Positions 47,560 to 49,142 of a stretch of 64,000 nt of DNA are shown here, one piece after another. The position numbers were made by a program, and so were the translations under genes. Numbering within the stretch: the stretch's first letter is position 1; each line of letters begins with the position of its first letter. The notes beneath the pieces were generated by a model. It had not been told where the DNA came from and did no database searches. It worked only from the letters and a program-made list of their open reading frames with translations. Source of the DNA: a virus; IMG/VR virus record IMGVR_UViG_3300010885_080919, positions 34,321 through 98,320 of that record. One strand, 5' to 3'.

Positions 47560-47657
47560 ATTAAAGCTCTTGTTTTTTACTGAGGATTGTGGTAAAAATA
47601 AAGTGCAAAGATTGATTCAAAAAACATTTCCTTTTAACTAAGAAGGGAGGGCAATTT

Positions 47658-49142
47658 ATGGGCTTAAATTCTGATTTTAGTTCTAGGAAGGTGGAGATTG
47701 TTGGTTATGAACATCTCCACCTTCATTAGGTTATACCGATTTTAGCCTTCTCTAAGTGCCCCGCTCTAATCAGCGGGGCACTTAGAGAAAAAGAAATTGA
47801 CGGATTCGGCATGGTAGAAGAGTACTCGTTAAGAGCCACTCAGATTAATCAGAAGTTTCTTACTGTGAGCGATCACGGTATGTTGGCTGTTGTTCCTAGA
47901 CAAATAAGAGCTTGTGAAAAAATCAATGAAAAAAAGGGCAAGGATACTATATCCCCGATATTTTCTGCGGAGCTATATATTAATCGCCTTCAGCCAGAAT
48001 CAAACGGTCTAGAAGACGTTCAGAAGTTTATTGTTGATTTAAATGAAGATGAGAAGAATGAAATAAAAGCTAGTCCTCATCTTTTAGCAATTGCGTACAA
48101 CGATGTTGGCTACAAAAACCTTGTTAGACTCACTAGTTGGGGCTGGACCAAAGGTTTTTATCGTAAGCCTAGAATCAACTACGACCAACTTTTGAAACAT
48201 AAAGAAGGGTTGATATTTACAAGTTGTTGCTACAACAGCGAAGTTGGAAGAGCCTTTGACAGACAAGGTGAAGATGCGGCTTTTGCTGTTATTGAACGAT
48301 ATGTAGAAATGGTCGGCAAAGATCACTATTACTTGGAATTAATGCTTTTGGATTTCAAGAAGCAAAAGCCTTATGACGCTTTTATAATTAAAGCTCATGA
48401 AAAGTATGGTTTGCCTTTAATTTGTTCCAACGACGTTCATTATTGTAATAAAGAAGACAGCAAGTTTCAAAGACTTATGTTAATGGTTCAAACGAAAAGA
48501 ACCGTTCAAGAAATACAAACCGCCATAGCAGCAGATGACACTCAAGATTTTTTTGAGCTTCAAGATGCAAGTTTGTGGATGAAGAGTGAAGAAGAATTAA
48601 ATGAAAAATGGCTGAATGAATATTCAGATGTTATTCCTTATGAGCTATTCTGTGAAGCTAAAAGAAATACTGTCAGAATTTGCGAAAAGGCCAAAGGCGT
48701 ACAGCTAGATAGATCTTTGAAGCTTCCGGTGTTACCAGACGCAGATGAAATTCTCAAAGAAGAAGTAATGAATGGGTTTAAACGCAGAAACCTTCCCAAA
48801 ACAAAAGAATATTTAGATCGCATCAAAGAAGAATATTCGCTCATAACAAGAAAAGGATTTGCGAGCTATTTCTTGATTCAAAAGAAGATGACGGACGAAG
48901 CCAGAAGAGCTTGTAAAGAAATATTGGGCTGGGGGGATGGAAGTCAAGCTTGTGGCCCCGGTAGAGGAAGTGCAGCAGGAGCTTTAATTTGTTATTGTTT
49001 AAGTATAACCAATGTTGATCCTGTTAGAGAGGGTTTATTGTTTAGTCGATTTATGAGCGAGGCTCGTGGTGGTAGAAGTATTTCTCTAGAGTTTAAAAAT
49101 TTAGACCCTCTACCTGTTGAAGAGGTTTTCATTGGAAATTAA
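47658..49142 (+). CDS. dnaE: DNA polymerase III alpha, N-terminal subunit (PHP + start of palm); interrupted 5' coding region (segments 47658-47726, 47735-47752, 47799-49142)
   Basis: GGGAGG SD; HLHLH|TDFSLL|DGFG, SDHG, AELY, HLL.IA.N..GYKNL, KPRI, NDVHY, GPGRGSAAG.L.CY.L.IT.VDP...LLF.RF. Confidence 0.88.
47687..47734 (+). other. 12-bp hairpin ending at His codon, followed by 8-nt coding gap TAGGTTAT (candidate bypass element 1)
   Basis: GAAGGTGGAGAT(47687-98)/ATCTCCACCTTC(47713-24); gap 47727-47734. Confidence 0.65.
47748..47798 (+). other. Perfect 18-bp hairpin covering Leu codon and TAA, 46-nt coding gap (candidate bypass element 2)
   Basis: TTCTCTAAGTGCCCCGCT(47748-65)/AGCGGGGCACTTAGAGAA(47772-89); gap 47753-47798. 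Confidence 0.65.

Follow-up and report, generated by a model that had tools for sequence, protein, structure and literature searches.

An IMG/VR viral contig of 98 kb, estimated to be ~20% complete, carries a dnaE gene whose first codons are interrupted twice. We analyzed 64,000 nucleotides (nt) of this contig, positions 34,321 to 98,320 of record IMGVR_UViG_3300010885_080919, and refer to this whole stretch as the window; all coordinates are those of the window, and features lie on the plus strand unless marked otherwise. The 5′ end of dnaE opens with a Shine-Dalgarno (SD) sequence, GGGAGGG (47645-47651), followed by a 23-codon open reading frame (ORF), ORF1 (47658..47729). ORF1 starts at ATG 47658, is translated as MGLNSDFSSRKVEIVGYEHLHLH and is homologous to the N-terminus of uninterrupted relatives; its C-terminal VEIVGYEHLHLH is followed by the stop TAG (47727-47729). 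The last sense codon, CAT for His (47724..47726), is the first candidate take-off codon, and behind it lies coding gap 1, 8 nt reading TAGGTTAT (47727..47734), with the final triplet TAT (47732-47734) as candidate landing codon.

Beyond gap 1, a six-codon island (47735..47752; ACC GAT TTT AGC CTT CTC) encodes TDFSLL in a frame that differs from both ORF1 and the main ORF. Its last codon, CTC (47750-47752), is the second candidate take-off codon and is followed directly by TAA (47753-47755). This stop opens coding gap 2, 46 nt (47753..47798) that further comprise a hairpin and an A-rich tail, with GAG at 47785-47787, a candidate landing triplet ATT at 47796-47798 and an alternative, cognate CTT at 47781-47783. 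The main frame of dnaE gene 1 (47799..49142) then begins with GAC GGA TTC GGC ATG (DGFGMVEEY) in a 443-codon ORF ending at 49142.

The main ORF encodes a PHP domain and the first part of the Pol III alpha domain (Pfam PHP, E = 2.8e-24; DNA_pol3_alpha, E = 1.1e-24), covering the first 98 positions of the latter in the profile match, and gene 1 is 51% identical to the contiguous 1179-aa DnaE of LR756511.1. The PHP profile was matched only from position 17 on, so the strand encoded upstream is absent from the main ORF. The remaining metal-ligand motifs, which the sequence-only reading had called intact, are all there in the alignment: SDHG, AELY, HLL, SCC and NDVHY. A PDB sequence search returned the DnaE family only (Taq Pol III alpha) and did not inform the N-terminus.

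Two short inserts with stops thus break up the first 30 codons of dnaE, and the SD, the ATG, both stops, both gaps and the joined motif all lie exactly where the sequence-only reading had put them. Joined in order, the translated pieces are predicted to restore the canonical metal-binding strand of the PHP domain, HLHLHTDFSLLDG, and the arrangement of the motif pieces is far beyond chance. The best explanation of this sequence is that gene 1 encodes the PHP/N-terminal half of a split DnaE and carries two non-coding inserts that the ribosome would have to skip.

Intact and interrupted alleles among related loci

We gathered 117 related loci from IMG/VR and metagenome contigs (protein identity 52-87%; designated by L numbers), located the HLHxH and DG codons in each, and measured the length between them. 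Intact alleles have exactly 18 nt in this interval, encoding TDFSLL and variants, or 21 nt in one subclade; such uninterrupted relatives, for example L004 (87% identity) and L005, encode HLHLHTDFSLLDGFG contiguously. About a third of the distinct alleles (34 of ~91) are interrupted, and every break falls inside the same 27-nt segment. Both outcomes had been predicted from the window, namely a contiguous HLHLHTDFSLLDG in some relatives and, in others, insertions at the same two sites with covarying stems. A strong SD, 6-9 nt 5′ of the ORF1 start, is kept in all interrupted relatives.

Gap length differs with the take-off residue: His is followed by gaps of 5-9 nt, Asp by gaps of 40-47 nt and Leu by gaps of either 6 or 46-48 nt. 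In 24 distinct variants, CAY is followed by a stop straight after HLHLH, at the first take-off site of the window, and the gap totals 5, 6, 7, 8 or 9 nt; the stop is TAG, except for TGA twice and TAA once. Five further variants carry hairpin inserts of 40-47 nt after an Asp codon. At Leu, L030 reads CTC TAA CTT GAT, and L065 has CTC TAG with a 46-nt hairpin insert at the second site of the window only. Both gaps occur together, as in the window, in L041 (86% protein identity) and L042 (83%), where gap 1 is TAGGTCAA and gap 2 comprises 48 nt starting with TGA; the gap 2 stop is conserved as TAA or TGA in these three loci. The candidate take-off codons are followed by a stop in the window (CAT-TAG and CTC-TAA) and by TAG, TGA or TAA in relatives. 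In L008 (5927-5967) and L102 (2426-2467) the stop after the take-off Asp is absent, the next codon being TCC in the former and the rare ATA in the latter.

The gap lengths span all three classes modulo 3. A single skipping mechanism therefore fits all alleles, whereas three separate mechanisms would have to be invoked for frameshifting or readthrough. The genetic code is standard, with all three stops in use: under code 11, long ORFs cover 79% of the sequence, and the 90 long ORFs end in TGA (42), TAA (39) or TAG (9). A search of the window and the whole contig (~20% of the genome) with Aragorn found no tRNA, hence no suppressor. Amber readthrough, an alternative raised by the sequence-only reading, could reach the main frame only in the window, where the inserts total 54 nt; in L041 and L042 they total 56 nt, and readthrough ends out of frame. 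Stop reassignment and readthrough were rejected on these grounds, as was a prfB-type +1 frameshift, in which CAT T cannot re-pair at +1, no SD lies 3 nt upstream, and the three frame classes would again have to be accommodated.

A milder form of recoding would leave only gap 2 to be bypassed. A +2 shift at CAT-TAG, with +1 or readthrough in relatives, would decode gap 1 and insert one or two extra residues (HLHLH-GY-TDFSLL). The short gaps, the small and plausible residues encoded by the in-gap triplets (G-Y, V-Y, A-N, S-Y) and the one extra residue tolerated in the same loop by the distant L001 all agree with this proposal, as does the stop in the A site, a classic frameshift stimulator. It would nevertheless require one mechanism for gaps of 7 nt (+1), another for 5/8 nt (+2) and a third for 6/9 nt (readthrough), all sharing one hairpin, and there is neither a slippery sequence nor an SD at prfB-like spacing. 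Moreover, 17 of 21 distinct variants, which are not independent of one another, end their short gap in an NAY triplet, mostly TAT or TAC; this bias fits re-pairing of tRNA-His better than ordinary decoding. With a G-U pair at the first position, the anticodon of tRNA-His can accommodate UAY. Overall, we consider recoding without a true hop at gap 1 unlikely.

The pattern of substitutions shows purifying selection on HLHLH and TDFSLL, each in its own frame. Among the window, L041 and L042, island codons, which a ribosome would reach in frame only by skipping gap 1, show synonymous differences only (ACC/ACA, GAT/GAC, CTT/TTG/TTA), changes that would alter most residues if read in the ORF1 frame, and the HLHLH codons of stop-type alleles likewise vary synonymously (CTC, CTT, TTG, CTG; CAT, CAC). 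Because both pieces change only in this manner, random decay of the segment, which the sequence-only reading had also envisaged, is excluded.

The same conservation bears on the idea that the pieces are never joined. ORF1 would then be a leader or remnant, and the polymerase would lack the first PHP strand and start at Met 47811 or at a non-canonical codon, its PHP domain being inactive or structural. Metal ligands have been lost from the PHP domain of some DnaE proteins, E. coli DnaE among them, where the domain serves a structural role, and the window does possess Met 47811; in addition, the region around the ORF1 start is enclosed by a hairpin whose role could be regulatory only. Yet Met 47811 is not conserved, its place being taken by L, S or T in relatives, and the first in-frame start after DG in most interrupted loci is the Met of DHGM, 27 codons on and without an SD. 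Selection on HLHLH and TDFSLL in their own frames and the intact state of all other PHP ligand motifs argue in the same direction, which makes unjoined pieces very unlikely in our estimation.

Hairpins at the candidate take-off sites

The first candidate take-off codon lies at the foot of hairpin 1 (47687..47724), a 12-bp stem (47687-47698/47713-47724) with a 14-nt loop. Its 3′ arm consists of the HLHL codons and ends on C, the first base of CAT. The 191-nt region folds with −73.4 kcal/mol versus −47.8 for shuffled sequences (z = −6.45). All 21 of the stop-type IMG/VR loci form 12 of 12 pairs with a partner 14 nt upstream (dG −18.5 to −23.9 kcal/mol), versus only 4-8 of 12 pairs in intact loci (n = 15; dG −2.4 to −8.6). 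Over 23 sequences, 96% of cells are paired, compared with 38-54% in slid controls, and 4 of the 12 pairs are compensatory, with changes on both sides. The 3′ arm is bound by the HLHL codons, and the 5′ arm, which lies in non-conserved N-terminal codons, changes to match. The hairpin that the sequence-only reading had seen ending at CAT is therefore real, but it is a family-wide 5′ element of take-off sites and not specific to the window.

In loci with an Asp take-off codon (L026, L008, L046, L067 and L102), a different, equally strong hairpin is shifted so as to end at the Asp codon (z = −4.8 to −7.0), and in L030 a hairpin ends before its CTC (z = −3.05). The three double-gap loci have a suggestive further element in their RNAalifold consensus, an outer helix that would enclose hairpin 1; its 5′ arm (47660..47685) pairs with 47727-47748, so that the 3′ arm ends 2 nt 5′ of take-off codon 2, and it includes one compensatory pair only. 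Such a helix would explain why ORF1 has 23-24 codons in double-gap loci versus 10-14 elsewhere.

We also observed a likeness between the 16S rRNA anti-SD and the HLHL codons that make up the 3′ arm of hairpin 1 (ATCTCCACCTTC), which makes the 5′ arm (GAAGGTGGAGAT) SD-like. An SD-like action of this arm was considered and rejected, since pairing with the anti-SD is out of reach for an arm that would lie ~28-38 nt upstream of the P site at take-off. The start codon of ORF1 is located within or beside the 5′ arm in many relatives, and the refolded hairpin should for that reason also limit re-initiation.

Hairpin 2 (47748..47789) is a perfect 18-bp stem (47748-47765/47772-47789) with a 6-nt loop (dG −34.9 kcal/mol, z = −8.1). 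As the sequence-only reading had noted, it holds both the second take-off codon CTC and its TAA, which lie in the C-rich 5′ arm; the 3′ arm is G-rich. The window, L041, L042 and L065 all keep this hairpin (96.8% of cells paired, 3 compensatory pairs), and its pairing survives TA, TG and CG changes. In all seven hairpin-insert families the 5′ arm is the C-rich one and the 3′ arm the G-rich one, and an A-rich tail comes next. This constant orientation suggests a function in the sense-strand RNA, whereas a DNA palindrome would have no preferred orientation.

Hairpin 2 is one of only two 18-bp stems in the 98-kb contig. A scan of this contig for similar GC-rich hairpins inside genes found none, so that hairpin 2 is not a dispersed repeat there, and an exact-pattern scan of IMG/VR found no other copy. 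Other long perfect hairpins in the window are an 18-bp stem at 30182-30224, terminator-like and between ORFs, and a 14-bp GC-rich stem at 60184-60217, just within the 5′ end of the ORF 60169-60648.

Two landing sites had been proposed for gap 2, ATT or the in-frame CTT. In L065, TAG and TAA occur in the DG frame upstream of GAA ATT, which limits productive landing to the last 6 nt, and the CTT at 47781 of the window is buried in the stem of hairpin 2. For both reasons we favor ATT 47796 as the candidate landing site; CTT, which would add REKEI, is less likely but a live sub-alternative. Other candidate take-off/landing pairs are TTT/TTT in L046 and CAC/CAT in L045.

These structures could also be read as recognition elements for RNA processing, the gaps being micro-introns cut out before translation by an endonuclease and ligase or by other means, and large phages often encode RNA ligases and repair enzymes. 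A stop after the take-off codon, an A-rich tail and near-cognate last triplets are, however, features of translation and not of splicing. We know of no mechanism that removes 5-9 nt. A permissive Rfam search (E <= 1) of 45500-55500 gave no intron or ribozyme family and one chance lncRNA match only. A self-splicing or enzyme-spliced intron was rejected for lack of a recognizable structure in this search and because gaps can be as short as 5 nt. The sequence-only reading had offered two consecutive hops or two micro-introns; the alleles of relatives support the former, the latter are without support, and we rate micro-introns as highly improbable.

Taken by itself, the window might be explained by an artefact of assembly or sequencing, or by a defective genome carrying a dead allele, as its own gaps are not spanned by an independent contig and hairpin 2 lacks a second copy in IMG/VR. 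Yet the same double arrangement, with substitutions, is found in two other metagenome contigs (L041 and L042), dozens of contigs from many samples carry single-gap variants, and 7-nt stop-gap relatives are present in Logan contigs from two studies. Together with the covarying stems and the conserved coding pieces, these observations render an artefact or dead allele scarcely credible.

The 5′ cassette, its endonuclease and the surrounding genes

Directly upstream of dnaE lies a gene for a free-standing HNH-type homing endonuclease (46462..47559; phrog_559 HNH endonuclease, E = 2e-59) that also matches phrog_681 (endonuclease) and phrog_9084 (homing endonuclease). HNH genes or their remnants were found 100-250 nt upstream of dnaE in 19 of 49 interrupted loci versus 0 of 66 intact loci (Fisher's exact test, 8e-9, not corrected for phylogeny). 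A quick maximum-likelihood tree of the proteins encoded by gene 1 intersperses intact alleles with interrupted ones, and it contains sister pairs that differ in state. Relative to its intact sister L007, for example, L045 has a clean 0.86-kb insertion that consists of an HNH gene and a new dnaE 5′ end.

Identity among the window, L041 and L042 is 82-88% over the 5′ cassette itself (about 160-185 nt) but only 74-80% over the downstream gene, and the closest sequences to L041 and L042 downstream of the cassette are the intact alleles L004 and L005. From this difference in kinship, the cassette moves independently of the gene and has a history apart from the rest of dnaE. The linked endonuclease differs between carriers, as has also been reported for MobA cassettes (10.1101/2022.08.31.505936). 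By analogy, self-cleavage of the carrier is probably prevented by the inserts, which would break up the endonuclease target within the conserved codons.

The gene is divided a second time, on a larger scale. Throughout the clade (window, L004-L040), dnaE is split into two genes after LLFSRFMSEARGGRS, and it is contiguous only in the distant L001 and L036. In the window, dnaE gene 2 (52367..55093) encodes the remaining Pol III alpha domain, the fingers and HhH according to domain matches, and a spacer of ~3.2 kb, variable in length among relatives, separates the halves. Over its first ~80 residues, gene 2 bears a weak resemblance to the end of gene 1 but without GPGRGS, and no intein motifs were seen. 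The spacer ORFs are 49117-49860, 49933-50997 (minus strand), 51005-51361 (minus strand) and 51846-52370; the spacer includes an N6/N4 DNA methylase (Pfam, E = 1.6e-34), one ORF matches phrog_23621 (function not known), and the two minus-strand ORFs had no Pfam or PHROG match.

Two relatives carry larger coding insertions. In L016 (3086-6010), an HNH-like coding insert breaks the PHP domain before AELY and ends ...AVHN|CELYVN; it looks like an intein with a homing endonuclease, which would be a third invasion route into dnaE. In L027 (6001-8505), a stop-8 relative, gene 1 is an 834-codon open frame versus the usual ~440, an excess length suggestive of a large in-frame insert, perhaps an intein, deeper in the gene.

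As to the source, the closest GenBank relative at the protein level is a 595-kb uncultured phage, and DNA of the contig turns up in lake and freshwater metagenomes, in DNA runs that share part of its words, none of the runs listed being RNA. The combination points to an uncultured huge freshwater phage. Blastn of the region against GenBank phages gave no match, relatives being found at the protein level only.

Two candidate bypasses and their known counterparts

On this evidence we think it likely that the window encodes two programmed translational bypasses, borne on a mobile, endonuclease-linked cassette that resembles T4 gene 60/MobA in its working without being homologous to it. The ribosome would initiate at ATG 47658 behind the strong SD, read 23 codons and stall with His-tRNA on CAT and TAG in the A site. 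The peptidyl-tRNA would then release its codon while the mRNA slides by 8 nt, a movement that may be favored by re-zipping of the 12-bp hairpin, whose 3′ arm would be just out of the ribosome, and the tRNA would re-pair at the near-cognate TAT. After the six codons of TDFSLL, a second hop, of 46 nt and of the T4 gene 60 type, is envisaged at CTC-TAA at the foot of the 18-bp hairpin, with landing at or next to ATT 47796 and reading resumed at GAC (DGFG...).

Several points weigh against this interpretation. The nascent chain, 23 residues before take-off 1 and 29 before take-off 2 in the window and 10-14 in relatives, is unlike any known bypass-promoting peptide, and T4 needs such a signal. Two serial hops would multiply losses, and the 18-bp stem is far larger than the T4 take-off stem-loop and could block the ribosome instead. 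The take-off codons and their landing triplets are only near-cognate (CAT to TAT; CTC to ATT, matching at 2/3 positions), versus GGA/GGA in T4, and gap 2 contains the cognate in-frame CTT (47781-47783) that would add REKEI. Among relatives, L008 has no stop after its take-off codon, and L065 is without a clear 5′ hairpin. With a mobile cassette, many variants are not independent, and the association statistics are uncorrected for phylogeny. Finally, a search of Logan contigs from four runs recovered fragments and contigs of 7-nt-gap relatives but no independent contig across the gaps of the window, a result that is uninformative on presence or absence.

A broader proposal, which we would hold no more firmly than doubt, is that the window belongs to an undescribed, widespread family of mobile bypass cassettes at the first metal-binding strand of DnaE. 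In such cassettes a re-zipping hairpin, and not a long nascent-peptide signal, would drive hops of 5-9 nt, or of 40-48 nt with a take-off hairpin; they would be stackable, giving one protein with two hops six codons apart, would immunize the carrier against the linked HNH endonuclease, and may gate polymerase synthesis to widely spaced ribosomes. Full-text literature searches returned no description of bypassing for dnaE or huge phages, in line with the sequence-only reading, to which no described example in a DnaE was known. The tandem pair of candidate bypasses and the putative nested 5′ helices are what the window newly adds.

If the interpretation is true, the dnaE loci would constitute an independent natural bypass family with >30 distinct alleles, which vary in gap length, stop, landing triplet and stem and so offer a ready mutational series on ribosome release and landing. 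They would imply that a short nascent chain together with a 5′ hairpin can be enough, and that two hops in succession are possible. They would also extend the MobA idea, in that a homing endonuclease would invade invariant codons of an essential gene via a bypass element, with no intron or intein. Gene callers truncate such dnaE genes or call them pseudogenes, so that a recoding rule is needed when replication modules of huge phages are annotated.

Very few systems with programmed translational bypassing are known, namely T4 gene 60 with its homologues, a single Streptomyces phage terminase and the mitochondrion of one yeast. The mitochondrial byp elements of Magnusiomyces capitatus (Lang et al. 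2014, as cited in PMC10732093) are reported to share with the dnaE inserts GC-rich hairpins of tens of nt in an AT-rich genome, the possibility of several per gene, mobility, and tolerance of imperfect take-off/landing matches. As described there, byp elements are mitochondrial and without an SD, endonuclease linkage or a dedicated 5′ hairpin, and the dnaE inserts, unlike byp, are confined to one hot spot in one gene.

Bypassing in the g6/7/8 terminase of Streptomyces phage phiHau3 was supported by a junction peptide identified by mass spectrometry in E. coli (PMC10732093). This is also a phage gene with two bypass sites, and RNA structure that brings the landing codon near the take-off site is a further likeness to dnaE. 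Its trigger, however, is a rare UUA codon with a regulatory tRNA and not a stop, and the gene is a different one with no endonuclease cassette. Non-programmed short hops over stops in E. coli (Weiss et al. 1987, as cited in PMC10732093) cover +5/+6 nt between similar codons, like L030 (CTC TAA CTT) and the 5-9-nt gaps; in that account they are of low efficiency and not conserved features, in contrast to the candidate hop sites of dnaE with their dedicated hairpin.

The closest likeness in anatomy can be drawn to T4 gene 60, where 50 nt are bypassed within a MobA homing-endonuclease element (10.1101/2022.08.31.505936; 10.1101/2024.12.09.627546). In this precedent, endonuclease linkage is combined with a stop, stem-loops at take-off and on the 5′ side, and a gap tail rich in A/U (10.1101/2022.08.31.505936; PMC10732093). 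Both T4 gene 60 and dnaE have a non-coding insert within invariant codons of a metal-binding motif in an essential replication enzyme, a stop after the take-off codon (within the take-off stem-loop at dnaE gap 2), a 5′ stem-loop and a host gene split in two. Gap 2 of dnaE measures 46 nt versus 50 nt in T4; both gaps have an A-rich 3′ part and a GAG, 8 nt before ATT in the window and 6 nt before the landing codon in T4, and a cognate triplet is hidden in the stem, CTT in dnaE as GGG in T4. In both systems an HNH endonuclease is linked and sometimes lost or swapped, and gains at the same site are repeated and recent.

Membership in the MobA/gene 60 family was nonetheless rejected. All MobA elements have been reported within the topoisomerase gene (10.1101/2022.08.31.505936), the site being Gly46/Asp45 in the Toprim domain of the topoisomerase II large subunit, with conserved extension tails at the N- and C-termini, whereas here it is the PHP domain of dnaE, with no evident sequence homology between the two. 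The ~30-residue nascent-peptide signal lacks room as well, as 23 and 29 residues precede the take-offs; with candidate bypasses 12-29 codons from the start across the family, a gene 60-type signal of known length is impossible. Landing triplets are near-cognate in dnaE and matched in T4 gene 60, and the 5′ hairpin is the most conserved element of the dnaE family but the least conserved among gene 60 homologues. Most members of the dnaE family have 5-9-nt gaps without a take-off stem-loop, unlike gene 60, and the window, again unlike gene 60, places two candidate bypasses only 6 codons apart.

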